DNA of 64,000 nucleotides from an uncultured Gammaproteobacteria bacterium (GCA_964503955.1 CAZDCG010000001.1:382864-446863); one strand, 5' to 3'; positions 25,195 to 46,313 are shown, counted from the stretch's first letter. Made by a program: numbers and translations. Notes: generated from the letters alone by a model not told the origin.

Positions 25195-26028
25195 TTATTG
25201 AGCCACGTAGGCGAATCGTCCCCCTTCTGTTTTAGAGAAGAGATCTTTACACATAGCTGAATTTCCACCCTGCTGATCAGCCTCATCACAAACGAACGGA
25301 TCATTGGCATCCAGCGCCCTGGCTAAAAAGACATGTGATACACAGATAAGAGCATCCGCGCTTTCACAGTAAGATAACTCATTCGTTCTATAGGCAGCGT
25401 AAACGGCGGTTTCGAAGGGACAGCGCTGAGCGACAAAGCCTTGGGTTGTCGGACACAATGACGCGTCGTAAGCATTGAGCGCCACAAGCGACTGAGCCCG
25501 TTCCGATTCACAAAGAGCATCTCCCTCGCAATCAAGCGAATATCGAACAAGCTCCTCATTTGTAGGAATATCCTGATCAGCCGCCAGCTGGGGGGATGAA
25601 GAACGTCCGCAAACAGACCGCAGTTCCGCATCAGCGATAGAGGCACAACTTGCTGAATCAGTGTTTTCGGCGGCGAGAAGAACCGTAAAGAGGTCGCGGC
25701 AAAGCTCTTCCTCTTGGCTGTTCTGACAATGCGCAAGACCGAATGCCTCAAGCGCAAGGAAATCCTCCACTTCTTGAGCGCATGTTCTTTGTACCTCTGC
25801 TGACAAACGGCCGCACAGGCCCTGATCCTTGTTTTGTTTCGCTGAACGAATAACGGATGTGATTTGGCATGCCTTTAGATCAACCGATTTCAAGCCTTCG
25901 CAAAAACCGAAATCTACCTCAGGGAATTGCGCGGCCACACGAGCAGACTTAAGAGAAGGGAACATTAAATAGCCCAAAATGGCTGCGACAGCCAGAACAA
26001 GCACGAAAATGAGGATGTTTTTCTTCAT
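25195..26028 (-). CDS. Secreted Cys-rich hypothetical protein
   Basis: Signal peptide MKKNILIFVLVLAVAAILG followed by about 20 Cys. Confidence 0.5.
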   Translation of the reverse strand: MKKNILIFVLVLAVAAILGYLMFPSLKSARVAAQFPEVDFGFCEGLKSVDLKACQITSVIRSAKQNKDQGLCGRLSAEVQRTCAQEVEDFLALEAFGLAHCQNSQEEELCRDLFTVLLAAENTDSASCASIADAELRSVCGRSSSPQLAADQDIPTNEELVRYSLDCEGDALCESERAQSLVALNAYDASLCPTTQGFVAQRCPFETAVYAAYRTNELSYCESADALICVSHVFLARALDANDPFVCDEADQQGGNSAMCKDLFSKTEGGRFAYVAQ

Positions 26029-26031
26029 ACA

Positions 26032-26799
26032 TTACAGAGAGATGAGAACAGTAATCGTTCCTTCAATATTGCCCGTTCCCGTCGAAGTGTAGTTATCGTC
26101 GCCATTCCAGCCGCCGGAGCTGCCCGTCGTATGTGTCACCGGCATCGGACAATAACCTGTGATGGTATAGGTGTTGGTGTTTGAATTTACGTCGCTGCTT
26201 TGAATAACTGCAGGAACATAGTAATTTGTTGTCGCATACCCTGATAAACGGCATCGGATGGATTCGGAAAGAACCGCAGAAGCAGTTCCTGTGGTCACCT
26301 GGCCTTGTACCGTAAAGGTCTGGTTACATGTGGCTAGGTTCACGTATTCAGGATACGTATCATAATCATTGTCGCGCCAATAAGCGTAGTTTTGATTTCC
26401 GTAGTTCGCGTAATAATACGATTGGTTGATAATATTTCCTGCTCCAGGAAAGGGGAAGAGTTCCACAACCGAGTTATTGACCTGCTGTACGGTTTGGCCA
26501 AATGAACAGTTGATGTTCTGATTAGTAATCGTCACCACCTGGGTCGTTGTGGTACCGCCCCCAAGAGAATCCGAACAATCCCCGTTCATACAGATTTCCC
26601 CATTCACCGACAAAGTACCCTGAACGGTCAGATTTCCCTGCTTGATTTGCGCGTCCGGACCGACATTCAACGGCGCATAGACTCCAGCGGTTCCGTCCGG
26701 TGCGGTTGTAGGGGCGGCAAAAACATAGCCGGTGCCGGCGAGAATAATAATCGCAAGGGATGTGATTCCAATATTGTGCCAAATCTGCTTGGTTTTCAT
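26032..26799 (-). CDS. Secreted hypothetical protein with a Thr/Asn/Tyr-rich beta-rich domain
   Basis: Start at MKTKQIW. The signal peptide ends VFA|AP, and the mature N-terminus AAPTTAPDGTAG resembles that of the collagen-like paralogs. N/Q/T/Y-rich, with conserved Cys. Confidence 0.5.
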   Translation of the reverse strand: MKTKQIWHNIGITSLAIIILAGTGYVFAAPTTAPDGTAGVYAPLNVGPDAQIKQGNLTVQGTLSVNGEICMNGDCSDSLGGGTTTTQVVTITNQNINCSFGQTVQQVNNSVVELFPFPGAGNIINQSYYYANYGNQNYAYWRDNDYDTYPEYVNLATCNQTFTVQGQVTTGTASAVLSESIRCRLSGYATTNYYVPAVIQSSDVNSNTNTYTITGYCPMPVTHTTGSSGGWNGDDNYTSTGTGNIEGTITVLISL

Positions 26800-26853
26800 A
26801 AAGCCAATCTTATTAGTTGCTTTCAGTATAGCAAAGAACACTCTCAGATAACA

Positions 26854-28350
26854 TCAGCGAACCAGCAAGACCAAGAAAGCTGTTGCTATTAGGTTCAAGA
26901 AAAAGACCGGTTCTTCTTGATACTGCTTTCTTGCCACAAGCAGAAACTGAACACAACCGGTGAGAAGAAATGCCAGGAGAAGCACGGGGTGATTCACCGT
27001 AAAATAGGCAGAAAAAACAGCGTATGCCAATGGAAACGTGAATAAATAAAAGCCTCCAATCAGTAGTTGCGCGCGTCTTTGTCCAAGCATGACGGGCAAG
27101 GTTTTGATGCCAGCCTCTCGGTCGCCCTCGGTATCCTTTAAATCGATAAAATTGTTGGGGGCCGTAAGCCAGAGGAAAAAGAGCACGATCGATAAAGAAG
27201 GGATGAATTCCGGGTCCAAGAACCATGCCCCAAGCAGAAATAGCAGCAAAGAGTTCAACGCGATCACAGATTTTGAAAAAAAGGGAATCCTTTTGATACG
27301 TAAGGGAGGAACAGAGTAGATGAAGTAGAAACCAAGATACAAGCCGATAACCATGAAGGCTGTGATACTTACCATGGCGCCCAAAACAAGCGCCCCTCCA
27401 CCCATTAACCACATGAGTTTTCGATACGTCGCAGTATCCACACCGCCTATCACGGTGGGCCGATCAGGGTTGGTAATTCGATCGATCTGCACATCTTCGA
27501 GATTATTGCTCATGACGGAAAAGATCCAGGCATAAACGATTGCCAAGACGAGAAAAAGCCAATCAAGGAAGGCCAGCTGGTCCGGCACACGGTGAACTCC
27601 GTCAATAAGCGCAGCTCCCAAAATGAGCATCAAAAGATAATGCGCCAACCGATAAGGGCGGATGTCTTTTAACATCATGAGGAACCATTTTTTTTGATCG
27701 ACAAAGAATAAGAATCCCGACGCCATGAGCAGCAGGAGAACATAGAACTTGAAGAAGAACCAATCATCGTAGACATGTGTGATCTTCAGAATGGAAAATC
27801 CTCTCTCTAAAAGGAACGGCATGGTGATGAAAAAGAAAATCAGCACATAACTACTCAAGCTGGCCAGCAGAGCACGCAGGATCGAGGAAGTTGCGAAGTA
27901 CACGTAGAACGCAGAAAAGATAAGAAACAGGGCAATTTCCAGACGCATCCCAATGGTCACCCCTCGTTCGGTTATCGGTCCAAAGTAAGTAAGAAAGAGC
28001 GCGACGAACTCACTAAGACTGCGTGGCGAAAGATAGCTGATATCCATCCCCCCCGAAACAACCATGTCAATCACAGGTGTCAAAGGCAGAAGCAAAAAAG
28101 TGAAGGGAATAACGCGCAGCAATTTTCCAACTTGAATCTTGAAGATGAGATGAAGCACTGCCGCCGCCGTCAAACCAACAGCCCAATAAGAAACAAAGTA
28201 ATGGCCAAACGCCGCCCAGTTCGCTGGATACGCGTCGGAATACTGTTCAAGAAAGTTGCGAAGGAAAATAAAAAACGATCCAAAAAGGATCGCTGAGGTA
28301 AGCGAAGTAGCTTCGATCTGGGCGATGAACTTGCGGAAAACTTCTCGCAT
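26854..28350 (-). CDS. Polytopic membrane protein with a C-terminal UbiA-family prenyltransferase domain
   Basis: About 15 predicted TM segments. The UbiA motif NNLEDVQIDRITNPDRP (NxxxDxxxD) lies in the C-terminal half. Confidence 0.55.
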   Translation of the reverse strand: MREVFRKFIAQIEATSLTSAILFGSFFIFLRNFLEQYSDAYPANWAAFGHYFVSYWAVGLTAAAVLHLIFKIQVGKLLRVIPFTFLLLPLTPVIDMVVSGGMDISYLSPRSLSEFVALFLTYFGPITERGVTIGMRLEIALFLIFSAFYVYFATSSILRALLASLSSYVLIFFFITMPFLLERGFSILKITHVYDDWFFFKFYVLLLLMASGFLFFVDQKKWFLMMLKDIRPYRLAHYLLMLILGAALIDGVHRVPDQLAFLDWLFLVLAIVYAWIFSVMSNNLEDVQIDRITNPDRPTVIGGVDTATYRKLMWLMGGGALVLGAMVSITAFMVIGLYLGFYFIYSVPPLRIKRIPFFSKSVIALNSLLLFLLGAWFLDPEFIPSLSIVLFFLWLTAPNNFIDLKDTEGDREAGIKTLPVMLGQRRAQLLIGGFYLFTFPLAYAVFSAYFTVNHPVLLLAFLLTGCVQFLLVARKQYQEEPVFFLNLIATAFLVLLVR

Positions 28351-28374: not shown

Positions 28375-28953
28375 CTACTGAGAAAAATTGTTCTGGGTTT
28401 GAGGCTGATAGATGATTTGCAGCGGAGTCAGTTCAGACGCAAACAAATCTTGAGAAGTTGCCGGAATGATTTGAATGATGTCGCCCGGATAGAGATCTTC
28501 AATAGAAAGAGGTTCTGAGTCCGTCAGCTGAATTTGATCTGTTGTTAAGCCCCGGCTTCTTCCCTCTTCCAGGGCCTGAATATATGCTTCGTCCTGTAGA
28601 AGGGTGACTTTTTCCACAACAACATCCTCGGTGATCAAAAGCCGCTGCGTGAATCTTTCTTTGCGTAGAGGATTATTGAAACGCTGGTTGAGTATCTCGA
28701 TTTCAAGCGCGTTTGCCTGCACTGAAACGATTTGCCCGAATAGGATCTGCTTTTCCTCGCTTGCTGCCGATGAAGCAAGCAACCGGTCCACCGCCTCGAT
28801 ATTCAACCGGGCCTGCTCTTCTCTTGCTGATGTGTAGCCTTTTTCAAAATAGAAAGGCTTTCCAACGAATAAAACGAGCGCGACCGAAGCAACTGCGGCA
28901 AGCCAGCCGGCAGTGGAAACAATCACAACGGATTTATGGGATTGTTCAGACAT
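28375..28953 (-). CDS. Membrane-anchored hypothetical protein (paralog family member 1)
   Basis: N-terminal TM segment and a C-terminal domain shared with 28957-29547 and 33704-34177. Confidence 0.5.
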   Translation of the reverse strand: MSEQSHKSVVIVSTAGWLAAVASVALVLFVGKPFYFEKGYTSAREEQARLNIEAVDRLLASSAASEEKQILFGQIVSVQANALEIEILNQRFNNPLRKERFTQRLLITEDVVVEKVTLLQDEAYIQALEEGRSRGLTTDQIQLTDSEPLSIEDLYPGDIIQIIPATSQDLFASELTPLQIIYQPQTQNNFSQ

Positions 28954-28956
28954 AAT

Positions 28957-29547
28957 CTATTCCAGAGGAATATCAATAATGGCAATTTCGTCCGCGATAA
29001 ACGATGACGAAGCGACATCTTGATTAGTGCGGGCAGTGATTTCAACTCTTTGTCCAGCTTCAAGAGACTCAGGCGCTGTCAATACATCTTCATATGGTGG
29101 AACAAGCATAGGATTTTGCCCTGCCTGATCAGCTTGCTCCCTGCGCTGCTCGTATTCATCAGGGCCTAAAATCTGCCGGAGCACAATGCGGGTTTGGCCA
29201 TCGATGATAACCGCTTGTTCCTCAGCCTGTTCAGCAAAGGGGAAATTTGGAGCAAGCACGATTTCTTTTACAATCAACTGCTGTCCGCTTACACTCATAA
29301 CCTTTGCCTGCAAAACATTGTTCAGGTCGGCAGGTTGTGTAAGAGAGCCAAATGCCTGCTCATAGACCGCCTGATCTTCCACGTTTTGATCGGCAATACC
29401 CGCAGACCAGCCTTTGTCATAAGCAGCCGAAGATGCCAGAACGAAAAACCAGACAATGACTCCCGCTGTGATAATCCACCCCAAGGAAGCGAGAAAAACC
29501 GATGGTGATGACGAGGTCTCTTTTGAAATGGTCTCTTGCATATGCAT
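28957..29547 (-). CDS. Membrane-anchored hypothetical protein (paralog family member 2)
   Basis: The C-terminus LEAGQRVEITARTNQDVASSSFIADEIAIID aligns with LQAGQEAEISFVRSDSETQNASRIVIFD of 33704-34177. Confidence 0.5.
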   Translation of the reverse strand: MHMQETISKETSSSPSVFLASLGWIITAGVIVWFFVLASSAAYDKGWSAGIADQNVEDQAVYEQAFGSLTQPADLNNVLQAKVMSVSGQQLIVKEIVLAPNFPFAEQAEEQAVIIDGQTRIVLRQILGPDEYEQRREQADQAGQNPMLVPPYEDVLTAPESLEAGQRVEITARTNQDVASSSFIADEIAIIDIPLE

Positions 29548-29609
29548 TCAGTATACAAGAGTTCAAAAGTGATTGTGAAGTGAATGACAAAGCGTTATAC
29601 TACAGGTGT

Positions 29610-30041
29610 ATGAGATCAGAAAAGTTTTCATTTCAAATCTTCTCCGCGGCTCTGGCGGTTTTTTCGATCACACTTCTCTTTTCTTTTGATTTCGCTTCTG
29701 CTCGCCCAACCCAATCGCCTCCAAATGGCAGTCCGTCATGGCCGCCGGGGCCTCAAGGACCTCAAGGACCGCAGGGACCGCAAGGATCTCAAGGACCACA
29801 GGGAGCTCAAGGGCCTCAGGGTCCTCAAGGACCACAGGGACCCGCAGGAACAACGACATGCGACTGGAATGGGAGCTTTTGGATCAGCCATGGATGGGAC
29901 GGCAACTGTGCTTGGTATGTCGGAGTTCGCATCAATTGCAGTGGAGGACGAGTAACATCCTTCACAAATTATAACTATACTGGAGCCGGTACTTGCGGAT
30001 ATATGTGCTACGCGGGGGGCGCCTGCCACCAGCCTTCTTAA
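29610..30041 (+). CDS. Small secreted collagen-like (Gly-Pro-Gln)n protein with a Cys-rich C-terminal domain (paralog 1)
   Basis: Signal peptide ending ASA|RP, then PPNGSPSWP, about 11 G-X-Y triplets (mostly GPQ), and a CDWNG...HGWDGNC Cys-rich domain. Confidence 0.6.
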   Translation: MRSEKFSFQIFSAALAVFSITLLFSFDFASARPTQSPPNGSPSWPPGPQGPQGPQGPQGSQGPQGAQGPQGPQGPQGPAGTTTCDWNGSFWISHGWDGNCAWYVGVRINCSGGRVTSFTNYNYTGAGTCGYMCYAGGACHQPS

Positions 30042-30047
30042 GGCGTC

Positions 30048-30461
30048 GTGTTTACATTTCGTATGACAATAGCTTTCTTGCGAAAACAACTTCAAATTCT
30101 GATGGCTTGTCTTGTTGTTTCAGGCGTGATTATGCTCTTCAACGCTGTGAAAGCTGCGCCCACTCAAAACCCGCCTGCAGGCAATCTCTCCATTCCTGCA
30201 GGCCCAGCCGGACCCCAGGGACCGCAAGGACCACAGGGATCTCAGGGACCGCAAGGACCACAAGGACCTCAGGGATCGCAAGGTCCACAAGGAGCTCCTG
30301 GAAACGCCAGCTGCAGCTGGAACGGCTATATGTATCTGAATCATGGATGGGATGTTGGCACAGGATGCCAGGGATACCGCGGCATTCTCGTTCGATGCAG
30401 CGGCGGACAAACCTATGACTTTTCACGCATCACCAATTGCGGGCCTTTCGCAGGATTCTAA
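30048..30461 (+). CDS. Small secreted collagen-like protein (paralog 2)
   Basis: Signal peptide ending VKA|AP, a (GPQ/GSQ)n run of about 12 triplets, and CSWNG...HGWDVGTGC. Confidence 0.6.
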   Translation: MFTFRMTIAFLRKQLQILMACLVVSGVIMLFNAVKAAPTQNPPAGNLSIPAGPAGPQGPQGPQGSQGPQGPQGPQGSQGPQGAPGNASCSWNGYMYLNHGWDVGTGCQGYRGILVRCSGGQTYDFSRITNCGPFAGF

Positions 30462-30463
30462 TT

Positions 30464-30877
30464 ATGAAATCACTTAACCAGTTCAATCTACTACTCAGTA
30501 TTGCCGCCACCGTCACAATCGCGGGCTTATTTGCGATGAGTTCAGTGAAAGCGGAACCAAGTATTGCCCCTCCGGGAGGCAATCCGAGTTTTCCTGTTGG
30601 TCCGCAGGGTCCACAGGGACCCCAAGGACCTCAGGGACCCCAAGGACCTCAGGGAAGCCAGGGGGCGTCAGGATCCCAGGGCCCGGCGGGACTGTACGGC
30701 ATGGGGTTCTGCTACTGGAATGGCCCTGAGTTCGTCAGCTACGGATGGGATGGATGGTGCGCGGGTGATATCGGTGTCTTCTTCCATTGCGACGGCTACC
30801 GTCTCTACCATCTTTCTCAACGATACACCGGGTGCGGAAGCTCAGGAACATATCCAAGTACGCCTTACATCAACTAA
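30464..30877 (+). CDS. Small secreted collagen-like protein (paralog 3)
   Basis: The ATG lies 2 nt after the previous stop. Signal peptide ending VKA|EP, a (GPQ)n run and CYWNG...YGWDGWC. Confidence 0.6.
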   Translation: MKSLNQFNLLLSIAATVTIAGLFAMSSVKAEPSIAPPGGNPSFPVGPQGPQGPQGPQGPQGPQGSQGASGSQGPAGLYGMGFCYWNGPEFVSYGWDGWCAGDIGVFFHCDGYRLYHLSQRYTGCGSSGTYPSTPYIN

Positions 30878-30896
30878 GCCGCAATCAGTAGAACGA

Positions 30897-30926
30897 AAAA
30901 TCCAAAAAGCCGCCTGAATAGGCGGC
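30897..30926. terminator. Bidirectional rho-independent terminator
   Basis: aaaaagccgcc-tgaata-ggcggctttttt. Confidence 0.6.
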
Positions 30927-30948
30927 TTTTTTCTTTCTTATGAAGGCC

Positions 30949-32931
30949 TTAGCGAGGGACAATGCGCCTGAACTCCGGAAGGAGAACTCCCACGGACGCG
31001 TCCGTGCTGGTTGAGCAAGAGTACCCATCGGAATCGGTTACGGACAAAGATATTTGAACATCCTCTTCCGTTACATATTCATGCTCAGGATTCTGGTGCA
31101 CGCTTTCATCACCGCCGGTCAGGGTAGTGCCATCACCAAAATCCCAGTCCCACTCGGCAATGGTCGCACCGCCATACGTGATGGTTTCATCAGTAAACTG
31201 CGTTGGCTGACCCAAGGTTGGCTGAGCAGGGTCAAGGCTGAACGCGCATTGCGGAGCCGGGTGCAACGGCGTTCTAAAACAGTTGCTTTCGCCAACAGGC
31301 CCTTGTTCTCCCCACTCAGACCAAGAGTCGTCTGCCGCGCTCTGCACGCGCACTCTCCAATAGTAGGTCGCATTGTAGACCAGTTCGCCAAGCCCGACCG
31401 TATAGAGAGAATCCGGTGCTTCCACGACTTCGTCAATGAGAGGAGATCCAAATAAAGGATCATCATCAACTTGGACGTGATACGCTTTTTGTGATGATCC
31501 ATCAAGGGCAGAGTATTCACTCCAATCAAGCACCGGCGTGAGCGCGGATGTCGGATACAAGGTATAGGTATCAACACAAGCAAGCGGCTCGATAAGCGTT
31601 GGCGCAAGCGGGCCGGCTTCGATTCTCAGCTGGGTGATAACCGAACCGAAAACGTGGTTGTACTGAATCCACCCGATCGTATCACTCCAGGCCCAGCCGC
31701 TCCATCGATTGTTCGTCTGATTATATTGAACTCCGTATGAGATAGCCCCTGTATCGCGCAGCTTTACCCAGCCATCATCTCCGGCCGCATCGATTCCAAC
31801 AAACTTGGCCCAGCCGGAAACTTCTCCTGTGGCCTGGTTCCAATGCGCGGAATGCTGCGGAGATGTCGGATACGGCCCGGCGGGATCATAATCAAGCCAG
31901 CCGATTTGAGACCAGGCATATCCTGTGATATTTCCATCTTCTTCCACATTCACACCGTATTGGATGTCGTAATTGGTGAAGCGAAAAGCAATCCAGCCAT
32001 AATGATCATTCCATGCCCAGCCTGACAAACTTGGCACCTGCCCTTCGTTAAAAACCACTCCGCCCAAAGCTGGGGCAAAATCGATCCAGCCTGTTACATC
32101 ATTCCAGGCATAACCGGTGAGCGAGCCATCAGGAAGAAGGTCAATGCCAAATCCTCCGCAAGAAGGAGTACAGTCTCCTCGTAGTTCAATGAGATTATTC
32201 GCACCAAGCGAGGTAATTTCAGCCGTCCCCGACAATTCCCCTGTTTGCGGGTCAAAAGCGGCTCCAGAAAAATCGATGTATGCTAAGTAATCATTCCAGG
32301 CATGCCCGCTGACATCTCCGGTTTCCGTATCGACATGCACGCCGAACTCCGGAGTGGATGGATCATCAACGCTATTGTGAAAAATCCAGCCGATATTGTC
32401 TGACCAGGCCCAACGACATGTATTGAAAGGGGAAGCGGAACAGACGCCCTCCTCTGGAGTCGGGGTTAGCTCGCTCATCTGGATCCAGCCGATATTTTCG
32501 TTCCAGGCCCAGCCGGAAACGCTTGGAGTTTGGGCGGAATTTTGCGATACCCCGCCGTAAACCGGGTCAAACTGCACCCAACCGATGATCTGGTTCCAGG
32601 CCATGCCGGCGAAGTTTCCTCCGCTGTCCACGCTCACGCCGTAACCGCCGCAGGTTGGGCTGCAGTCGCCGCTCATATGTAAAAGTCCGTCTTGCCCTTG
32701 ATTCTGCAGCTCAATGATTAGTGCGGTTCCGCTAAGCGCGCCGGTATTCACATCGTAAATGGCATTGTTGAAATCGATCCAGCCTACTCCCTCACTCCAC
32801 GCGTACCCATTAACATCGCCATAGACTTCGTCGATATGCATGCCGTAGTAGACCTGCTGCGCCTCAACAGACATGGTAAACCCAGCCGCAAAGAGCAAAC
32901 TCGCAAAGAAAATAAGAAAAGACTTCCTCAT
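30949..32931 (-). CDS. Large secreted repeat protein: about 10 Trp-rich ~45-aa repeats plus an FN3-like region and a C-terminal PKD domain
   Basis: Signal peptide ending VEA|QQ. The repeat motif G(Y/W)AW(S/N)xxxGWI(D/Q)F recurs about 10 times. YYWRVRVQS...WSEWGE looks FN3-like. WDFGDGT...HEY matches a PKD domain. Confidence 0.65.
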   Translation of the reverse strand: MRKSFLIFFASLLFAAGFTMSVEAQQVYYGMHIDEVYGDVNGYAWSEGVGWIDFNNAIYDVNTGALSGTALIIELQNQGQDGLLHMSGDCSPTCGGYGVSVDSGGNFAGMAWNQIIGWVQFDPVYGGVSQNSAQTPSVSGWAWNENIGWIQMSELTPTPEEGVCSASPFNTCRWAWSDNIGWIFHNSVDDPSTPEFGVHVDTETGDVSGHAWNDYLAYIDFSGAAFDPQTGELSGTAEITSLGANNLIELRGDCTPSCGGFGIDLLPDGSLTGYAWNDVTGWIDFAPALGGVVFNEGQVPSLSGWAWNDHYGWIAFRFTNYDIQYGVNVEEDGNITGYAWSQIGWLDYDPAGPYPTSPQHSAHWNQATGEVSGWAKFVGIDAAGDDGWVKLRDTGAISYGVQYNQTNNRWSGWAWSDTIGWIQYNHVFGSVITQLRIEAGPLAPTLIEPLACVDTYTLYPTSALTPVLDWSEYSALDGSSQKAYHVQVDDDPLFGSPLIDEVVEAPDSLYTVGLGELVYNATYYWRVRVQSAADDSWSEWGEQGPVGESNCFRTPLHPAPQCAFSLDPAQPTLGQPTQFTDETITYGGATIAEWDWDFGDGTTLTGGDESVHQNPEHEYVTEEDVQISLSVTDSDGYSCSTSTDASVGVLLPEFRRIVPR

Positions 32932-33008
32932 ATGCCTACAGTATACCACAAGAAAGAAGACACCTGCGTCAAAAACGTGTTATACTTTGATCGAAATAAT
33001 CTTTTTGT

Positions 33009-33656
33009 ATGCGCAATCACATTTTGCTGCACGGAGTTCTGGGAGTTTTTATCGGCATGTTCGGTGCCGCTCTAGGGATCTCCATTATCAACTACACATT
33101 CGCTGCTCCATCAGAAGCTCCTCCTGGGGGCAATCCAACGTTTCCCTTGCAAGGTCCAACCGGACCGCAGGGTCCACAGGGACCTCAGGGGCCGCAGGGG
33201 CCGCAGGGACCACAAGGACCGCAGGGACCGTCAGGGACAGTTAGCCCATCACAGACAATCAGCTTGCGAACCTCGAGTTCGATCTGGTATTGCACGCAGG
33301 CAAATCTACAAGCTGAATGCGGTGACGCGGATGGGTGCCGAATTCGGATGGTTATGGACCACAAAACCGCTGGAAACGACGACACGCGTATCATTGAAGA
33401 GCACCTGTACATGGAGAACTGGAGTGTGAATTCCGCTAACGGTGTATACGGCTTTACGCGTCAGCTTGGCGGAGGCGATGGCGGATGGATTTCAGGTCCC
33501 GGCTATCATTATGCAGTCGCCGCCCCATGGGATTGGGCCTGGATCCACACCTTTCGACATGCGAATTGTTACGGTTCAAACCAGTCGCTTTCTGCTTACA
33601 ACTTCAATTTCATGACCCATCCGGATGTCGCGACAACCTTCTACGTCTTTGACTAA
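33009..33656 (+). CDS. Secreted collagen-like protein (paralog 4) with a distinct, larger C-terminal domain
   Basis: Signal peptide ending FAA|PS, about 9 GPQ triplets, and a roughly 130-aa C-terminal domain unrelated to paralogs 1-3. Confidence 0.6.
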   Translation: MRNHILLHGVLGVFIGMFGAALGISIINYTFAAPSEAPPGGNPTFPLQGPTGPQGPQGPQGPQGPQGPQGPQGPSGTVSPSQTISLRTSSSIWYCTQANLQAECGDADGCRIRMVMDHKTAGNDDTRIIEEHLYMENWSVNSANGVYGFTRQLGGGDGGWISGPGYHYAVAAPWDWAWIHTFRHANCYGSNQSLSAYNFNFMTHPDVATTFYVFD

Positions 33657-33663
33657 AAGCGAA

Positions 33664-33692
33664 AAAAAAGCGCCCCGGCCGGGGCGCTTTTT
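33664..33692. terminator. Bidirectional rho-independent terminator
   Basis: aaaaaagcgccccggccggggcgcttttt. Confidence 0.6.
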
Positions 33693-33703
33693 GATTTCCT
33701 GAT

Positions 33704-34177
33704 TTAGTCAAAAATCACGATTCGACTTGCGTTCTGTGTCTCAGAATCTGATCTGACAAATGAGATTTCCGCCTCCTGACCGGCCTGCAAATCACTTGCG
33801 CGGATTGGCTCGTCTTGGGCAGAGCCTCCCTGCAGCCCGGTTTCAGGATCCACCGGCCGCGCAACCAAGGTCCGACGGATAAATTCGGTTGCGTTAGTGA
33901 TCACAAAGATGTGTTCCTGTCCGTTAGAAAGGAGCACTAATCGATCTTCATCAACTGACTGGATTTCACCTATAGCTGATTGGATAAACATTGTCATATC
34001 GATCCCATCTCCTTGAGGAGCAGGCGGCAAAGCTGTGCTTGCGGGCTGAGCACCGGCAAGTGCTCCTTCTTTTACTTTTGCGGGGCCGTATACAAAGACT
34101 CCGTACAAGGTTACTGAGATGAAGGCCCCCCAGCCGATCGCGGCGAAGAAAGTACATTTTTTGATTTGAGTTTCCAT
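33704..34177 (-). CDS. Membrane-anchored hypothetical protein (paralog family member 3)
   Basis: N-terminal TM segment and the C-terminal motif shared with 28375-29547. Confidence 0.5.
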   Translation of the reverse strand: METQIKKCTFFAAIGWGAFISVTLYGVFVYGPAKVKEGALAGAQPASTALPPAPQGDGIDMTMFIQSAIGEIQSVDEDRLVLLSNGQEHIFVITNATEFIRRTLVARPVDPETGLQGGSAQDEPIRASDLQAGQEAEISFVRSDSETQNASRIVIFD

Positions 34178-39678: not shown

Positions 39679-40122
39679 TCAGAGCTCAGATCCATTAAAG
39701 AATGATTTTCCGGTTTCAACTTCATCCATGAATTCATTCACCCATCCAACGCAATCCAATTCCCTCTTCGCCTCTTCAAAACTCATCCAGCGGTAATCCT
39801 GATGTTCATGACTGATCTGGACTTCCTGATGTTCTGCTTTGCCAAGAAAGAGAAAGGAAACGAATTCCACATTTGGATCAATGGCTCCGCGGATAACTTT
39901 ATAGCGCAGAAATTTTTCAATATGCACATCAAGCCCTGATTCCTCTTTGCACTCGCGCAAGACTGCTTGTTCAGGGGTTTCCAGAAACTCTTTTGAACCG
40001 CCCGGGAAATCCCATTGATTGGCGCCAAATTCCTCATTTTTTCCACGCTGTAAAAAAAGAAATTGTCCGTGCTCATTTCGGACAACGCACACGCAGGTGG
40101 CGATTGTCTTGTACTCGCGCAT
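39679..40122 (-). CDS. Nudix hydrolase
   Basis: Nudix box GGSKEFLETPEQAVLRECKEESGL. The start is MREYKT at 40122. Confidence 0.6.
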   Translation of the reverse strand: MREYKTIATCVCVVRNEHGQFLFLQRGKNEEFGANQWDFPGGSKEFLETPEQAVLRECKEESGLDVHIEKFLRYKVIRGAIDPNVEFVSFLFLGKAEHQEVQISHEHQDYRWMSFEEAKRELDCVGWVNEFMDEVETGKSFFNGSEL

Positions 40123-40202
40123 AAAGAGAGAAAGGCAATTCAATGTACTGAAAGTAGGCAAATTGTACGGAAAATACGTGAGTTCGTCAAAGATAGGCTT
40201 CC

Positions 40203-40560
40203 AAGAACCCCCTCATCAAGTCCATGACTCTAGACAGTTGATCCCTGTCCCCCTTTTCTAGGGGGAAGAAGTCGCTTCTCCCCTCTTGAAAAGAGGGGCT
40301 GTGAGAGACGTGGAGTAAAAATCAACATGCTTGGGGGAGTTCTGGGCTTGGTAATCCCTAATTTTATCCTCATCCTTATCTCTCATTACTCCCCAACTCC
40401 TCCACCTAATTCCTAAGTCCTAATTCTTTGAGCGGCTTTATGACATTAGCATCTTAAAGAATTAGGGGAAGGAATTAAGAATTAGGGAAATAAAAATACG
40501 CCCATGAATAGGCGCTGCTTTATTCGTAAATTTGTATTCGATTCGCACATTCGTACCCCC
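40203..40560. repeat. Composite cluster of palindromic intergenic repeats (families B, C and D)
   Basis: Contains cccccttttctaggggg / cccctcttgaaaagagggg hairpins, the cctaattcctaa...ttaggaattagg hairpin, and a copy of the groES-groEL spacer element ttcgtaaatttgtattcg. Confidence 0.65.
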
Positions 40561-40659
40561 ATCACTTCTCTATAAGTAACATCTGTTCCTTACAAAGAGG
40601 TGTTCTGCGCCGCGCTCCGGAAAGGAGGCGGCGCAGAAGCGCTCAAGGTTCTCGCGAAC

Positions 40660-41565
40660 CTAGAAGTCGCTGGCGATCTCGCGGTACTGCAGCAGCTCGT
40701 AGAGCATCCGCGTGACCTCGTCGAAGATCACCTGCGGGTTGTCGGCCGGATCGGTGAGCGGCGGAGCCATGAGGTAGGCAGGCTCCAACCCCTCCTTGAG
40801 GTAGTTCAGCATGCGGAAGAGCCGCTGGCAGGTGAAGACCTGCCGCACGCCGAAGGGCTGGTGGCTGACCAGAGCCAGCGGGGTGTCGCTGTCCCCCATG
40901 AAGTCGACGAGCGAGGCGATGGTCTCGTCGGCCCGGGCGGGCTTGCCGTCCGGCTGGTTGTGCGCGACCCGGAACATCAGGTCCAGGTGCGCCGGGAGGC
41001 TCAGCTTGAGCGCCGCGAACTTGGCGGCGTCGCGCTCGGTGCCGCCCACGGGCACGACACCGGACATGATCTCCTGCTCCTCCTTGTTGAGCGGACGCTC
41101 GCTGGTCAGGAAGAGCATGGAGCCCACCCCGTTGTTCAGGAACTTGATCGCGAAGCGGCCGCGGTGGACCATGGACTTCGCGGTCGAACCCAGGATCACG
41201 AGGAGGCGCTCCTGTCCGTCCTCGGGCATCCCGTGCGGCTCGAGCAGGCCGAGGCGGTCGAGCGCGGTCATGAGCTGCACGCGGTTGACCTCGCGGCCGG
41301 CCATCTCCCAGCGCGCCTGGCCGGGCTTGCGCTGCAGCGGCTGGGTCTGCTTGACCACGGCCGAGAGTTCGCGCGAGGCGAGATCCACGCCGAAGGCCTG
41401 GAAGAAGTCCAGGACCGGGTCGGTGACGATGTCGCCGGCCAGCCAGAGGTTGACATTTTCGCTGATCGAGAACGGCTTCACTCTACATTCCCCCTTTTCG
41501 GGTGATTCCAGGGCACCATGCCAAGGAAATCGTGGCATTTTCACTGATTTTTCACTCTTTGTCAA
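40660..41565 (-). CDS. Hypothetical protein encoded in the high-GC island
   Basis: 301-aa ORF with about 65% GC and strong GC3 bias. No confident family. Confidence 0.45.
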   Translation of the reverse strand: MTKSEKSVKMPRFPWHGALESPEKGECRVKPFSISENVNLWLAGDIVTDPVLDFFQAFGVDLASRELSAVVKQTQPLQRKPGQARWEMAGREVNRVQLMTALDRLGLLEPHGMPEDGQERLLVILGSTAKSMVHRGRFAIKFLNNGVGSMLFLTSERPLNKEEQEIMSGVVPVGGTERDAAKFAALKLSLPAHLDLMFRVAHNQPDGKPARADETIASLVDFMGDSDTPLALVSHQPFGVRQVFTCQRLFRMLNYLKEGLEPAYLMAPPLTDPADNPQVIFDEVTRMLYELLQYREIASDF

Positions 41566-41590
41566 ATCAATTCGGAATGAGTAAACAGAC

Positions 41591-41625
41591 TTGACAAAAC
41601 TGATCTTTTGTGATATTTTGAAACG
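41591..41625 (+). promoter_or_regulatory. Sigma70-like promoter for the island lipoprotein gene
   Basis: TTGACA, a 17-nt spacer, then TATTTT. AGAGGGGGGG lies 6 nt before the ATG at 41697. Confidence 0.45.
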
Positions 41626-41696
41626 TTAAACAAATACTCACTGTTCTCTCAAGCTTTTCTCATCCAGGTGCTCCACGCACAGAGGGGGGGTTCACC

Positions 41697-43502
41697 ATGT
41701 CGTTTGTCGCCAGCTTCTTTCGGTTCATTTCGCCGGTCCTCGTGGCCGGCATCCTGTCGATCTTCTGTGGGATGATGGTGCTGGGCTGCGCCAAGTCAGG
41801 CGGCCGTTCCGGCGGCGCGCCCATCAGCCCCGGCAACCCGCTCCCCAGCCCCGTGCCCCCGGCGCCGCAGGCGGACGACCACGGCGGCGATGCGGGCTCG
41901 GCTACCATCCTCACCCCCGGCACGGCCGTGACGGGGGAGATCGAGGAGCCGTATGACCGCGACATGTTCGCGGTCTGGGTCCAGGGCGGACAGACGGTGA
42001 CGTTCTCCGCGGATTCCACCAGCTCGATCGAGCTGTGGGTCCAGGAGAACGGGAACTGGACGAACTCCGCCCACGGCACCACGGCCAGCGTGCAGGCCAC
42101 GCCGACCAGCGACGGCTACATCTACTTCTACGTGGAGAACTACTCCTTCACCAACACGCCGGCGTACTCGGTCGTCGCCAGCCTCAGTGGGAACAGCACC
42201 GGCTTCAATGCCCAGGCGCTGCTGGTGAACACGGTCATGGACTGGAACAACCCGTCCAATCCGACCCGTGACACCACCCCCACCGAGCTGCTCGGCGTCT
42301 ACAAGATGGTCGCGCTCATGGACGAGACCGCGCTGCGGTCCTTCGTCCTGAACACGAGCCGGCCTCTGGACTTCGTCACGATCAACGTCTGGAATAACAA
42401 GACCGGACAGTCGGTGTCGAGGACGCTCTACGGTCCCGCCACGCGGTTCGAGTTCCGGGCATCCAGTCTGCTCGAGCTCGGCTACTGCGCCGCGGCTACC
42501 GACGAGCTCGCGATCCAGGTGATCACAGACAGCTCGCAGCTCGACGGCCAGGACGTGACTGCTTCGGTCGAGCGCATCAGCGTCTCGATCGGGAGCGGCA
42601 GCGAGGAGGACATGCTCAACAACCTCCCGCCCGCCGTCACCGTGCGCTACCGCGAACACTCGCGGCTCCAGCACACGGCGATCATGCCCCGCAGGGTCGA
42701 CGAGCGCAGCACCGATACCGTCTTCGCTGAGGTCGAGCTGGCCAATACCAGCGCGATCCACACCGCGAGCGTGTCGGAGATCAACTTCATCGACAACGGC
42801 AACAACACCGGAGTGAGCAACCTGCGCCTGGTCATCGACGGACAGACCGTCAACCTGACCGGCTCGGGCATCATCCGTGCCGACCTGTCGATGAGTCCGG
42901 TCGAGCTGAGCCCGGGCGAGGTCACGAGCTACCGCGTCCTCGCCGATACCATCGCCTCGGTCAACACCAACGTGTGGATCCAGGCGAACGGTGTGTCCAC
43001 CACCGTAGATCATGGCAGCCAAGACCTGACCATCTACGAGGGCGGCGCGCGCGACGCGTACGGCAACTTCGTCTGGTTCGGGGTCGAGTTCAACAAGGTC
43101 CTGACCATGACCCAGCGGGTCATCACCACGACCGGCCCCTTCAACGGACGTGATGTTTTCGCCGCCGACCTCATGTCAAGCGAAGATGTCAACATCCGCG
43201 GCGCCGTCTACACGCTGGTCAGCAACAACGCCCAGCTGGTCGGCGAGGTCCACCTCGTCTTCGACGGAACGAGCAAGGCGTCGACGCAGGAGAACGTCAA
43301 CAAGCTGGTCGAGCTGCCGTTCGGATGGCAGACCACCAGCTTCGAGCTCATCAGTGGCGTCTCCTACTCGTTCAACGTTCCGCTCCACCTGAACACCAAC
43401 CAGTCAGGCGACACCGTCCAGATGGTTCTGCACGCCATCCTGGACGACTGGGGGCGGGCTCACATGGTCCGCCAGACCGGGCCGTCTCACCTCGTGCAGT
43501 AG
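41697..43502 (+). CDS. Surface lipoprotein with a PPC-like (pre-peptidase C-terminal type) domain, encoded in the high-GC island
   Basis: Lipobox VLGC|AKSG and a Pro-rich linker. DHGGDAGSATILTPGTAVTGEIEEPYDRDMFAVWVQGGQTVTF looks PPC-like. High GC3. Confidence 0.55.
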   Translation: MSFVASFFRFISPVLVAGILSIFCGMMVLGCAKSGGRSGGAPISPGNPLPSPVPPAPQADDHGGDAGSATILTPGTAVTGEIEEPYDRDMFAVWVQGGQTVTFSADSTSSIELWVQENGNWTNSAHGTTASVQATPTSDGYIYFYVENYSFTNTPAYSVVASLSGNSTGFNAQALLVNTVMDWNNPSNPTRDTTPTELLGVYKMVALMDETALRSFVLNTSRPLDFVTINVWNNKTGQSVSRTLYGPATRFEFRASSLLELGYCAAATDELAIQVITDSSQLDGQDVTASVERISVSIGSGSEEDMLNNLPPAVTVRYREHSRLQHTAIMPRRVDERSTDTVFAEVELANTSAIHTASVSEINFIDNGNNTGVSNLRLVIDGQTVNLTGSGIIRADLSMSPVELSPGEVTSYRVLADTIASVNTNVWIQANGVSTTVDHGSQDLTIYEGGARDAYGNFVWFGVEFNKVLTMTQRVITTTGPFNGRDVFAADLMSSEDVNIRGAVYTLVSNNAQLVGEVHLVFDGTSKASTQENVNKLVELPFGWQTTSFELISGVSYSFNVPLHLNTNQSGDTVQMVLHAILDDWGRAHMVRQTGPSHLVQ

Positions 43503-43641
43503 ACTCCCGCTGAAACCGGCTCGATAGCCACAAGGTTTCTTCGGTGAACCAAGCACCCCCTTTCGAAAGCTTTACGCGAGTAGAAAGGGGGTCTTGTTGT
43601 TTTAGACCACCTGTTTTGTTCCACAATTTGATGACAGAAGC

Positions 43642-44727
43642 ATGGACAAGAGAATTTTCCATTCATATGGTTACCTATTGCCACGTCGGAGCGTACAAAA
43701 ACAAGCGAGGTGTTCTCTGAGCAAATGCAGGAAGTTTTTCCTGGCTGGCCTATTGTCTGTCATGCTGACGGGCTGCCACGATCACAACCATTCCCACGCG
43801 GCCGAGCGGCTGCTGATCACGGTCGACCGTGCTCCAGTCGCCACCATCCCCGAATCGGCCACTGCCCTGCTCGCGCGCTTTGACGCGACCGCCCTTGAAG
43901 AGCAAATGGCCGTGCACGAGATCCGGGTGCGGACAAGCCTTCCCACCTTCGGCGCGTTCATTACCACCGAGGAGGGGGTCGTGGGAGTCAGCCGGGAAGT
44001 TGATCCGTTCACCCAGTCTGATCCGCAGCAGGTGCGCAAGAATCTCAAGAAGCGCGTTCGCAACCTGCGTATCCTGCCGGTCGACGGGCGGACAGCCCTC
44101 TTTCGCATGGATCAGATCCGTGAAGTCCGTCAATTCAGCCTGTTCTTTAACACGCTTGGGCTCGATGACGAAGTGGTGAATTTTCAAATAACCCATATCG
44201 TCGTTTCATGGCGGGGAAAAGGCCGTGAACGCGACGGTGTGCGCGATTTGCAGTTCACGCTTCTTGTCACCGCGCCGCCCATCGTGCTCGCCGAAGCGAT
44301 CCAGCCGCTGCGCGTGCACGTTTCGCACGGAGCGCAGGAAATCCTTGCTGAAATGACACTCACCGAACTGTCCAATGAACATTCAGTGACGGTGCAGCTG
44401 GTGCAAGCCCGTCTTGATAGTCCATTGCCGACGATTTTCTACCTGACGGATTCGTTCGGGAATGTGCTGAGCCAGGGAATCTTCGACCCTGTTGATCCAA
44501 GAGCAATCTTCTTTGATCTGGGATTGGGAGGAATCTTAAGCATTGCTCCCGGGCAGGCCCGCCGCGTCTTCGTGATCGCGGATCTGACGCCCTTCCCAGG
44601 ACTCGACACACTGACGCTTGAAATCCCTCGCATCATTGTGGAGAACGACAATGGCGAGGTCGATGGCATCGACGGTCCCGTGGATCCGACCACGCGCAAT
44701 CTTGTCCAGTTCGTCAACGTGTTCTAA
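43642..44727 (+). CDS. Lipoprotein, tandem paralog A (C-terminus NLVQFVNVF)
   Basis: Lipobox LTGC. About 50% identity to the following gene over roughly 300 aa. Confidence 0.55.
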   Translation: MDKRIFHSYGYLLPRRSVQKQARCSLSKCRKFFLAGLLSVMLTGCHDHNHSHAAERLLITVDRAPVATIPESATALLARFDATALEEQMAVHEIRVRTSLPTFGAFITTEEGVVGVSREVDPFTQSDPQQVRKNLKKRVRNLRILPVDGRTALFRMDQIREVRQFSLFFNTLGLDDEVVNFQITHIVVSWRGKGRERDGVRDLQFTLLVTAPPIVLAEAIQPLRVHVSHGAQEILAEMTLTELSNEHSVTVQLVQARLDSPLPTIFYLTDSFGNVLSQGIFDPVDPRAIFFDLGLGGILSIAPGQARRVFVIADLTPFPGLDTLTLEIPRIIVENDNGEVDGIDGPVDPTTRNLVQFVNVF

Positions 44728-44899
44728 GACTAAGCCCCGTTCACCCTTTCACGAGGAAGAAGCGGGGCTTGCTGTTTATCGTCCAAAAATGGCGACGTTT
44801 TTCATGGAACAGTTGACGCGATCTCAGGCGAGCTCTAGCATAACTGATTGGCCCGATAACCGGGACAAACCATCAACCTACGATTTTGCGGAGGGATTG

Positions 44900-45928
44900 A
44901 TGCATCGACTCGTCCGTTCCTGGTGGGGTCGACAGCTGAAGCTGGTGCTCGGCTTCCACCTCTTCTTCATAGGCTGCGGGGATGAAAGACGCCATTTCTT
45001 CATCCTCAACGACGTGGTGCTCACCGTTGACCGAGCGCCCGTCGCGACGATCCAAGAAGCTCCTGCGGCACAGCTCGCCCGATTCGACGCGACCGCCCAG
45101 GCAGCCGACATTGTCATCACGCAGATGACCGTGCAGACCTCTCACCCCACGTACGGCGCTTTTATCACGACCAATGACGGCGTGGTAGGCAAGTCCATTC
45201 AGGTTGATCCGTTCACCGTGAACGATCCCGCTCAGTTCCAATTTTCCGTCCGGCAGTCGCTGCTCAACATTCAGCCGACAAATGGAAGGAACGCTCTGCT
45301 GCGGCTTGACCAGATCGGACAGGTCGAGCAAATGTCCTTGTTCTTCAACACGCTCGGCCTGGACGATGAGGTGGTGAATTTCCGCGTCCTCTCGATCACC
45401 GCCTCGAGCGCCTCATCTCCCCCAAAGGAGATCCCGCTTCCCGGGTTGAACTTCACCCTGCTCGTGACGGCCCCGCCTCTTGTCCTGGCTGAAGCCATCC
45501 AGCCGGTGCGCGTGCATGTTGCCCGCGGCGCGAGCGAAGTGCTGGCTGAAGTCGTCCTGACGGAGCTTTCCAACGAGCACAGCGTGGTACTCCAGCTCAT
45601 GGAAGCGCGCTTTGACAAGGCTTTGATCGGACTGAATCCTCGCCTGGTGGACAGTTTCGGCAATATCCTGGGTTTTGGGATCCTGGATCCGGACGATCCG
45701 CGAACGGTTTTTTTCGATCTCTCGACGGGCGGGGCGCTCTCTATCGCTCCCGGGCAGGCCAAGCGTGTCTTTGTGGCCGGAGATATGACGCTCTTTCCAA
45801 GCATCGACACGCTGACGCTTGAAATCCCCACCTTCATCTTCGAGAACGATAACGGAGAAACCGACAGCATCGACGGTCCGGTCGACCCCGCGACCAGGAA
45901 CCTGGTGCAATTCGTCAACGTGTTCTAA
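44900..45928 (+). CDS. Lipoprotein, tandem paralog B
   Basis: Start ATG at 44900 preceded by GGAGGG. Lipobox FFIGC|GDE. The C-terminus is identical to paralog A (RNLVQFVNVF). Confidence 0.55.
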   Translation: MHRLVRSWWGRQLKLVLGFHLFFIGCGDERRHFFILNDVVLTVDRAPVATIQEAPAAQLARFDATAQAADIVITQMTVQTSHPTYGAFITTNDGVVGKSIQVDPFTVNDPAQFQFSVRQSLLNIQPTNGRNALLRLDQIGQVEQMSLFFNTLGLDDEVVNFRVLSITASSASSPPKEIPLPGLNFTLLVTAPPLVLAEAIQPVRVHVARGASEVLAEVVLTELSNEHSVVLQLMEARFDKALIGLNPRLVDSFGNILGFGILDPDDPRTVFFDLSTGGALSIAPGQAKRVFVAGDMTLFPSIDTLTLEIPTFIFENDNGETDSIDGPVDPATRNLVQFVNVF

Positions 45929-46313
45929 CCGGTTCATCCACCGAGAACCCCGCTTTTCCTTCACCGGTCAGGCGGGGTTTTTGCTTCCATCTAGCGTCTA
46001 ATATCTCTATCTACCTCTAAATCTAAACACACTCTCTATCATTAACCTTCTCGATATTTAAGTACCTTTGCAATCTAGTCTCTAATCTTTGTGCCTATAT
46101 CTCTATCTCCATCTCCCCCTCCCAAACAAAAGAGCGCCCTCGCAATCGAGAACGCTCTTCGTGTTTACTTGTTTCTTGATTTTCTATCCTTTCCGAAGCA
46201 TCTGTTTGGATGAGACGCGAGAAAGGATTGAGAAGCGGAGCGATGCGTACCTATCGTACGGTGAGCGAGCATCGAAGATCCTGACGAAGCAGATCGCCAA
46301 ACAGATGCTTCGT

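Follow-up and report, generated by a model that had tools for sequence, protein, structure and literature searches.

The stretch analyzed here is a 64,000-nucleotide (nt) window of genomic DNA, labelled as deriving from an uncultured Gammaproteobacteria bacterium (GCA_964503955.1 CAZDCG010000001.1:382864-446863), that carries four small, collagen-like genes, P1 to P4, together with genes for a Trp-repeat/PKD protein and several membrane-anchored proteins. With a confidence slightly above even, this cluster can be read as a conserved module for C1q-like surface fibres, knobs on stalks of fixed length that are possibly built as an A/B/C heterotrimer; the fibres would serve as adhesins or struts. 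All eight open reading frames (ORFs) named in a first-pass annotation of the sequence were recovered at their annotated positions, including the four genes it had described as encoding a leader, a hinge, a collagen segment, and a Cys-rich head (29610-30041, 30048-30461, 30464-30877, and 33009-33656), and its general picture of secreted knob proteins borne on collagen stalks some 10 nm long is supported by what follows.

P1 to P4 share a common plan, comprising a hydrophobic leader with a small-x-small end, a Pro-rich hinge of the pattern A-x-P-[TS]-x-x-P-P-x-G-[NS]-x-x-x-P, an unbroken run of G-X-Y triplets, and a Cys-containing, C-terminal domain. P1 (29610-30041, plus strand), assigned as type 1 from its ORF, Pfam match, and ortholog position, encodes 143 amino acids (aa), with a leader at residues 1-31, the hinge ARPTQSPPNGSPSWPP, 12 triplets at nt 29748-29855, and a head that starts at Cys84 (nt 29859-30038) and bears an extra Cys-rich, C-terminal tail, CGYMCYAGGAC; its orthologs occupy the equivalent position in five related loci (L009, L012, L014, L015, and L034). 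The P2 ORF (type 2; 30048-30461, plus strand) opens at a GTG codon at 30048, and comparison with orthologs indicates that the true start is probably the ATG at 30063, giving a product of 132 aa; its 12 triplets lie at nt 30201-30308, and its head begins at Cys89 (nt 30312-30458) with the variant motif LNHGWD…C.G.RG. P3 (30464-30877, plus strand), assigned as type 3 from its ORF and ortholog comparison, has 137 aa, 12 triplets at nt 30599-30706, and a head from Cys83 (nt 30710-30874) with the variant EFVSYGWDG…CDGYRLY. The gap between the P2 stop codon and the P3 ATG is just 2 nt, as had been noted, and the layout of P1-P3 is operon-like, with one terminator, after P3. Finally, P4 (33009-33656, plus strand) encodes 215 aa with a leader and hinge like those of P1-P3, 10 triplets at nt 33153-33242, and an unrelated head. 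The Pfam Collagen model (PF01391; cut-off 27.2 bits) matches P1 and P2 with 30.1 and 30.2 bits, respectively, and P3 and P4 slightly under the cut-off, with 23.2 and 22.2 bits. P1-P3 are probably exported via Sec and cleaved after the small-x-small site.

P1-P3 are diverged paralogs rather than an assembly artefact, as the first reading had proposed, because their triplets use mixed synonymous codons and their hinge-plus-stalk DNA is only 60-67% identical pairwise; the heads are 37-45% identical to one another. Relative to the L009 orthologs, nonsynonymous divergence (dN) is 0.28-0.36, while synonymous divergence (dS) is 2.4 for P2 (dN/dS of 0.15) and saturated, hence incomputable, for P1 and P3. 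These values indicate old genes under purifying selection as opposed to pseudogenes, a possibility that had been raised at the outset.

A search of related genomes for the same architecture and synteny, as had been recommended, recovered the module in five further loci, giving six in total: the window, L009, L012/L013, L014 (GCA_016203885.1, Parcubacteria group), L015, and L034. The pattern GxxW[VIL]SHGWD is narrow, and a contig scan employing it gave only three loci. In each of the five further loci, three tandem mini-collagen genes accompany a Trp/PKD gene; one to three N-terminally anchored proteins are encoded as well, along with one or two leader-hinge proteins that lack collagen, each of the latter paired with a Cys-rich, anchored protein. 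The order of type 1, type 2, and type 3 is identical in all six loci, and in a neighbour-joining tree of leader plus hinge the genes cluster by position into three ortholog types. Thus, where four paralogous, adhesin-like units had been envisaged, P1-P3 are better described as three ancient, co-retained ortholog types, and P4 stands apart, its head being unrelated and exchanged for others in related loci. In most loci, including the window, rpoB lies on one side of the module and ruvA-pepA-ileS on the other; the flanks in L015 are different, which shows that the module itself is the conserved unit.

The stalk of these proteins is invariant in length. From the PP of the hinge to the first Cys of the head, 47 residues (10 of hinge, 12 G-X-Y triplets, and one more residue) were counted in 27 of 27 proteins measured, comprising 18 from the six loci (three of them in L034) and nine database proteins, and the X and Y residues vary freely within this fixed length. 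At 0.286 nm per residue, 12 triplets correspond to about 10.3 nm. To our knowledge, bacterial collagen-like regions, such as those of Scl and BclA, normally vary in length, and the constancy seen here therefore implies a geometric constraint, which could stem from a defined assembly, from in-register co-assembly, or from both. As such, the invariant stalk looks like a molecular ruler that belongs to a defined assembly at the cell surface. This ruler-like behaviour, together with the co-conservation of the module with membrane-anchored and Cys-rich envelope proteins, is what could be expected if P1-P3 were structural struts or spacers that connect an outer layer to the membrane or wall, or a lattice akin to that of minicollagens; adhesin collagen regions, by contrast, usually vary, as in Scl and BclA. 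On the other hand, related heads elsewhere cap fibres with sub-threshold matches to Bdello_MAT_N, the N-terminal model of a fibre class that acts in prey recognition (PMC10769870), and heads are swapped at the P4 position in the manner of recognition tips. A strut function, although rather unlikely, is a serious alternative or a complement given the invariant length; strut and recognition roles are not mutually exclusive.

The heads of P1-P3 belong to a domain, here termed CNW, that became visible only through exhaustive searching. A word-index search with these heads gave five candidates and found only one fragment, whereas an exhaustive HMMER search with the head profile over 1.84 billion representatives matched 48 proteins, of which approximately 45 are genuine. 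The module comprises about 45 residues with the consensus C-[ND]-W-x-G-x-x-W-[LVI]-S-H-G-W-D-G-x-C-A-[FW]-x-x-G-x-x-[VI]-x-C-x-x-G-x-[VI]-T … C; in the motif originally described for the three heads, the spacing is WNG-x6-GWD, where x5 had been given. No Pfam or NCBIfam model matched the CNW head, canonical members included, no PDB sequence was matched by profile, and Foldseek against BFVD gave nothing significant. It is, therefore, an undescribed domain with no detectable fold relative in the PDB profile or BFVD Foldseek comparisons. In an alignment of 26 sequences, Cys1 and Cys3 are invariant, and Cys2 and Cys4 are lost jointly in three proteins, a pattern that fits two intramodule disulfides.

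The architectures in which the CNW module occurs are informative. Single heads are C-terminal in every architecture save one, that of P0146, a 293-aa protein with an N-terminal CNW head fused to a reprolysin-like (M12B) metalloprotease region. Some of the single heads sit on collagen, namely those of nine leader-hinge-collagen proteins and of P0140, P0143, P0147, P0149, and P0175; others sit on apparent coiled coils (P0154 and P0157, judged by eye) or on fibre-like stalks, and P0149, P0163, and P0176 have sub-threshold but consistent N-terminal matches to Bdello_MAT_N. Multi-head proteins follow a strict rule, in that the 12 full-length examples each possess exactly three tandem, C-terminal CNW modules and never two or four; the thirteenth, P0137, is N-terminally truncated and retains two modules plus a partial copy. 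Most of the triple-head proteins are Cys-rich repeat proteins of the MopE/TSP3 type, an architecture that we take to be associated with Myxococcota. Within these single chains the three repeats are differentiated from one another, and the Cys2/Cys4 pattern gives no clear correspondence of P1, P2, and P3 to repeats 1, 2, and 3.

An AlphaFold2 model of one triple head (164 residues) reached a predicted local distance difference test (pLDDT) score of 81 and a predicted template-modelling (pTM) score of 0.81, with each repeat forming a strand, a short helix, and a β-hairpin. As a pTM this high implies confident relative placement of the modules, the three probably form one compact body instead of beads on a string. 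Taken together, the restriction to one module on a stalk that is trimeric or probably so (collagen, MAT-like fibre, or apparent coiled coil) or three in tandem, the compact model, and the obligate trimerization of collagen suggest that the functional unit of CNW is probably a three-fold, or pseudo-three-fold, knob of three modules. It was earlier proposed that each trimer would present three heads; that the heads come together at the end of one stalk still stands, and the evidence now suggests a single, composite knob.

How the three chain types combine is a separate matter. P1-P3 may represent the A, B, and C chains of a C1q-like, heterotrimeric mini-collagen, whose knob, of unseen fold, would be arranged around a three-fold axis and whose fibre would serve as a host-contact or spacing device. 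This proposal is attractive because the three types are always co-encoded with equal stalks and because single-chain relatives contain three differentiated repeats; in its full form it is nonetheless somewhat doubtful. Three independent, homotrimeric fibres, each with its own specificity and together constituting a small adhesin repertoire, fit the data almost as well and are a tentative possibility in their own right. In other phyla, single-head relatives occur as isolated genes whose stalks are collagen, apparent coiled coils, or MAT-like, so that the module is evidently able to homotrimerize; the three head types have also diverged to the identities given above, and both points favour homotrimers. 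Conversely, the three types are kept in one order with identical stalk length in six of six loci, and the differentiated repeats of the triple-head proteins reveal that non-identical modules can pack together, although both observations are compatible with homotrimers as well.

In the favoured reading of a knob-on-stalk surface module, P1-P3 would be exported via Sec and cleaved after the small-x-small site, and folding would begin at the C-terminus, where three CNW-SHGWDG modules, each of about 45 residues and two disulfides, would pack into a single, compact knob. The knob could then nucleate a collagen triple helix of 12 triplets (36 residues) and about 10 nm, and the conserved, Pro-rich hinge (APTxxPPxGNPxFP), which is also found on non-collagen secreted proteins of the module, would most likely dock the base of the stalk onto a common cell-surface partner; candidates for this partner include the co-encoded, membrane-anchored proteins and the Trp/PKD protein. 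P1, P2, and P3 may co-assemble as an A/B/C heterotrimer, as C1q does, and P4 and its positional counterparts would supply a shared chassis with swappable heads. Finally, the knob would make contact, at a fixed distance of roughly 10 nm from the docking point, with a surface polymer or with the cell of a partner or host.

Several observations weigh against this reading. An invariant stalk is equally expected for three separate homotrimers. The composite knob derives from domain architecture and from a monomer AlphaFold2 model of a homolog, as opposed to the window's own heads, and the P2 and P3 heads in the window are divergent members of the CNW family. The stability of a 12-triplet helix without hydroxyproline is an assumption, and it is solely a conserved gene neighbourhood that ties the collagen proteins to the Trp/PKD and anchored proteins. 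In addition, the hydrophobic regions of the leaders are long (17-23 residues), and the leaders could be uncleaved signal anchors, in which case a docking partner would not be needed. Release, instead of attachment, is envisaged by a further alternative, in which P1-P4 would be freely secreted effectors, toxins, or bacteriocin-like molecules. Their small size, secretion, and richness in disulfides are in keeping with such a role, as is the distant relative P0146, in which the head is joined to a metalloprotease region. However, scans of the window revealed no toxin, immunity, or dedicated export genes nearby, the head caps fibres or adhesin-like repeat proteins in all relatives but P0146, and the N-terminal hinge is common to non-collagen surface proteins, which argues for attachment over release; free effectors are accordingly improbable.

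P4 carries a different head, which has no relation to CNW. This domain spans about 140 aa with the signature C…CGDxDGCR…PWDWAW…YRHxNC…YD and is predicted to form a β-sandwich, based on structure prediction from a six-sequence alignment. Its relatives were found in one Myxococcales metagenome-assembled genome (MAG) and 18 metagenome loci, where the P4-type head forms the C-terminal end of stalks that are either collagen or fibre-like, the latter with repeats of the GNVGIGTTSP type. For example, L016 has a Bdello_MAT_N match (8.7e-11) that falls under the curated cut-off, and L023 has a hinge of the type seen in the Candidate Phyla Radiation (CPR). At the position equivalent to P4, L034 encodes the same head (P0002, an ortholog), and L009 and L012 instead possess other small, Cys-rich heads on a like leader-hinge-collagen chassis. 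By sequence comparison, this exchange of heads at a fixed position is tip swapping.

Another reading is that the cluster consists of prophage tail-fibre remnants or belongs to some other mobile element, and PHROGs tail-fibre families do match P1-P4. Those matches, like the NCBIfam ones, cover the G-X-Y segment only (residues ~42-87), with no matches to the heads or to neighbouring genes. Neither the CNW head nor the P4-type head has relatives in IMG/VR viral contigs, and the former has none in BFVD. In several genomes rpoB/rpoC and ruvA-pepA-ileS flank the locus, and the G+C content (GC) of the cluster equals that of its flanks. Such an origin is hardly credible, and a phage tail-fibre identity was rejected on the grounds of no homology beyond the collagen segment, no phage neighbourhood, and conserved chromosomal synteny across the six loci; a prophage remnant, which the first-pass annotation had listed as an outcome that would overturn its proposal, was not found.

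The Trp/PKD gene (30949-32931, minus strand) encodes a secreted protein of 660 aa, assigned from Pfam, its repeats, and its homologs. It was originally placed as divergent, which is accurate relative to P4; relative to P1-P3 it is convergent. The protein comprises a leader, approximately 10 repeats of the form G-x-A-W-[SN]-x3-G-W-[IV]-x-F, and then Ig-like and PKD domains (Ig_Rha78A_N, 2.7e-6; PKD_4, 1.1e-10), in agreement with the initial description of a secreted, Trp-rich repeat protein with a PKD domain. At least 857 homologs were found at E ≤ 1e-5 among the scored candidates, the best of them 51-58% identical across 96-100% of the query. The homologs that carry names, which are annotated merely as ‘PKD domain-containing protein’, belong almost without exception to Patescibacteria (Parcubacteria, Nealsonbacteria, Pacebacteria, Falkowbacteria, and Spechtbacteria); one record is labelled Methylococcales. 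The ‘giant’ protein of the first description is thus present, yet by full-length homology it is a member of a large, unnamed Patescibacteria family characterized by Trp repeats, Ig_Rha78A_N, and PKD_4. Its C-terminus (window 30949-30990) reads LPEFRRIVPR, and close orthologs have LPEFERVIPR or LPDFKRVIPR; typical Patescibacteria homologs of ~400-450 aa (compared in P0210, P0235, and P0247) end in LPLPEY[KQ]EV[AP]P followed by a hydrophobic tail. The motif resembles a C-terminal signal for sorting or anchoring that, in this lineage, no longer has its membrane segment. From the named homologs, the host of the module would be a Parcubacteria-type (CPR/Patescibacteria) lineage; the window's proteins are also present in Logan assemblies of the SRR118438xx runs. 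The contig of L009 (CAYQCH010000009.1) is likewise labelled ‘uncultured Gammaproteobacteria bacterium’ and is syntenic with both the window and the Parcubacteria-group MAG of L014; its label is probably wrong, likely owing to binning.

Three N-terminally anchored proteins bracket the cluster. Type A (192 aa; 28375-28953, minus strand) has a transmembrane segment, GWLAAVASVALVLFVGKP, followed by an extracytoplasmic α/β domain that has no Pfam match, with orthologs in L009, L012, L014, and L015. Type B (196 aa; 28957-29547, minus strand) has orthologs in L009, L014, and L034. Type C (157 aa; 33704-34177, minus strand) has a weak, sub-threshold, DUF5666-like C-terminus, and L034 has a 162-aa gene at the corresponding position. 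Although the proposed N-terminal anchoring is borne out, the three are not close paralogs, being only 16-21% identical mutually, and are better viewed as conserved ortholog types. Assignment to DUF5666 (PF18914) was rejected, with two of nine family members matching at E ≤ 0.05 and type C scoring 20.9 bits versus a cut-off of 27. Two palindromic, terminator-like hairpins with A- and T-run flanks lie between convergent genes, one with a 12-bp stem at 30904-30931, between P3 and the Trp/PKD gene, and one that is GC-rich at 33665-33692, between P4 and the type C gene. Both had been called bidirectional; the former scored on both strands and the latter on the minus strand only. The divergent intergenic regions at 29547-29610 and 32931-33009 are very short (62 and 77 nt, respectively), and both contain promoter-like hexamers that end 3-23 nt ahead of the start codons, which suggests that the 5' leaders are very short or absent.

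The conserved module also reaches leftward to 25195, beyond the coordinates first assigned to it. A secreted, β-rich protein (26032-26841, minus strand; likely start ATG 26799) has a leader like those of P1-P4 and a ‘FAAPTTAP’ hinge without collagen, with counterparts in L009, L012, L014, L015 (two copies), and L034. The next gene, 3 nt downstream and translationally adjacent, encodes an N-terminally anchored, Cys-rich protein of 277 aa (25195-26028, minus strand), and the pair (25195-26841) is found again in L009, L012, and L034, with two copies in L015. Also inside the module here, and absent from the syntenic loci, is a gene for a 498-aa membrane protein (26854-28350, minus strand) whose C-terminal half is a UbiA-type prenyltransferase (NCBIfam E of 1.6e-17, below cut-off) and which has an additional N-terminal membrane domain of ~230 aa. 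FG-GAP/ASPIC-UnbV repeat proteins lie in or beside the module in L012 (12666-14786) and L014 (1-1030), placing integrin-like repeat proteins in the neighbourhood of two related loci.

Elsewhere in the window, the DsbA-like thioredoxin gene to which disulfide formation had been ascribed does exist (58004-58708, minus strand), 24 kb away; it is followed by a gene for a 451-aa, CAP/SCP-domain protein (56646-58001), another secreted, Cys-rich protein that DsbA could serve. A segment at 40000-46000 has a GC of 0.57-0.62 versus approximately 0.49 elsewhere and encodes three hypothetical proteins whose N-termini look lipoprotein-like or secreted, one of 601 aa and two of ~360 aa that are paralogs of each other; Pfam scans of two of the three (41697-43502 and 43642-44727) gave no match, and this island may have been acquired horizontally. 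Rfam identified no RNA family in the window.

Members of the CPR, or Patescibacteria, account for much of bacterial diversity and are regarded as living in attachment to other cells. Beyond type IV pili and ‘giant proteins’, few of the molecules by which they make contact are known. The cluster offers a small, conserved, and tractable candidate for such contact, as proteins of 130-145 aa are easily synthesized and the structural prediction is clear. What is new is the undescribed head domain, with its unusual and informative distribution of one per trimeric stalk or three in tandem, and, in Parcubacteria-type genomes, the conserved set of three proteins whose stalks are fixed at 12 triplets, a set that was not found in the literature searched. 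The one-copy versus three-tandem pattern provides a testable case for the origin of symmetric folds. If the A/B/C arrangement were true, it would represent a clean, natural interconversion between an oligomer and a tandem repeat of one knob, and the fixed, 10-nm fibre would serve an episymbiotic CPR lineage for contact with its host or for spacing of the envelope.

Collagen-stalked, trimeric knob proteins are already known as a kind, although literature searches on collagen-like proteins in CPR/Patescibacteria returned nothing relevant, in line with the initial view that the present combination corresponds to no described system. C1q is encoded by three tandem, paralogous genes, whose products each have a short N-terminus, then a collagen stalk, and at the C-terminus a globular head from which trimerization starts, and P1-P3 are likewise three tandem paralogs with a short N-terminus, a collagen stalk, and a C-terminal head. 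Membership of the C1q/TNF superfamily was rejected, as its jelly-roll gC1q/TNF-like head of ~130 aa was not found in these proteins. Cnidarian minicollagens have ~12-16 triplets, Pro-rich flanks, and small, six-Cys knots of ~20 aa at both ends that polymerize by disulfide exchange; they resemble the window's proteins in their very short collagen helix, Pro-rich stretches, and small, Cys-rich domains. The latter differ in possessing one larger, Trp-rich, four-Cys head at the C-terminus only, and there is no homology. Scl1/Scl2 and the Legionella Lcl are also bacterial surface collagens, and their NCBIfam models match the G-X-Y segment; the scores across the Scl and Lcl models are 22-31 bits, far under the cut-offs of 325-500 bits, and identity with Scl1/Scl2 (NF038329, NF038330) was rejected, at 18-31 bits versus cut-offs of 325-400. 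Scl has its globular domain at the N-terminus and an LPXTG anchor at the C-terminus, with lengths that vary, such that its polarity is reversed, and neither an LPXTG motif nor a C-terminal transmembrane segment was found in the window's collagen-like sequences.

The Bacillus BclA/BclB proteins have an N-terminal motif for attachment to the basal-layer protein BxpB, a collagen-like region, and a trimeric, C-terminal head (PMC4674009). Their attachment motif parallels the conserved hinge of the window's proteins. In contrast to the latter, BclA has a collagen region of variable length, lacks a Sec leader and assembles in the cytoplasm of the mother cell, and has a C1q-like, C-terminal domain; the corresponding Pfam model, BclA_C (PF18573), has no match among the window's proteins. 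The BclA motif, …GPTLPPIPP…, looks superficially like APTxxPPxGNP.

Finally, the MAT fibres of Bdellovibrio combine a conserved, N-terminal attachment part with a trimeric stalk and exchangeable, C-terminal tips, several of which have folds absent from the PDB and which recognize prey glycans (PMC10769870). The Bdello_MAT_N model (NF053851) matches neither the collagen-like proteins of the window in NCBIfam scans nor the 26032-26841 protein, and the window's proteins differ from MAT fibres in having no MAT N-domain or β-helix/β-prism stalk, in being about one tenth the size, and in combining a leader and hinge of CPR type with a collagen stalk of 36 residues. The likeness lies at the tips: the CNW head (in P0149, P0163, and P0176) and the P4-type head (in L016) cap proteins with sub-threshold Bdello_MAT_N matches, at 17-42 bits versus a cut-off of 60. 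Exchange of tips is seen at the P4 position, both kinds of head occur on several types of stalk, and the collagen stalk suggests that the window's proteins would trimerize.

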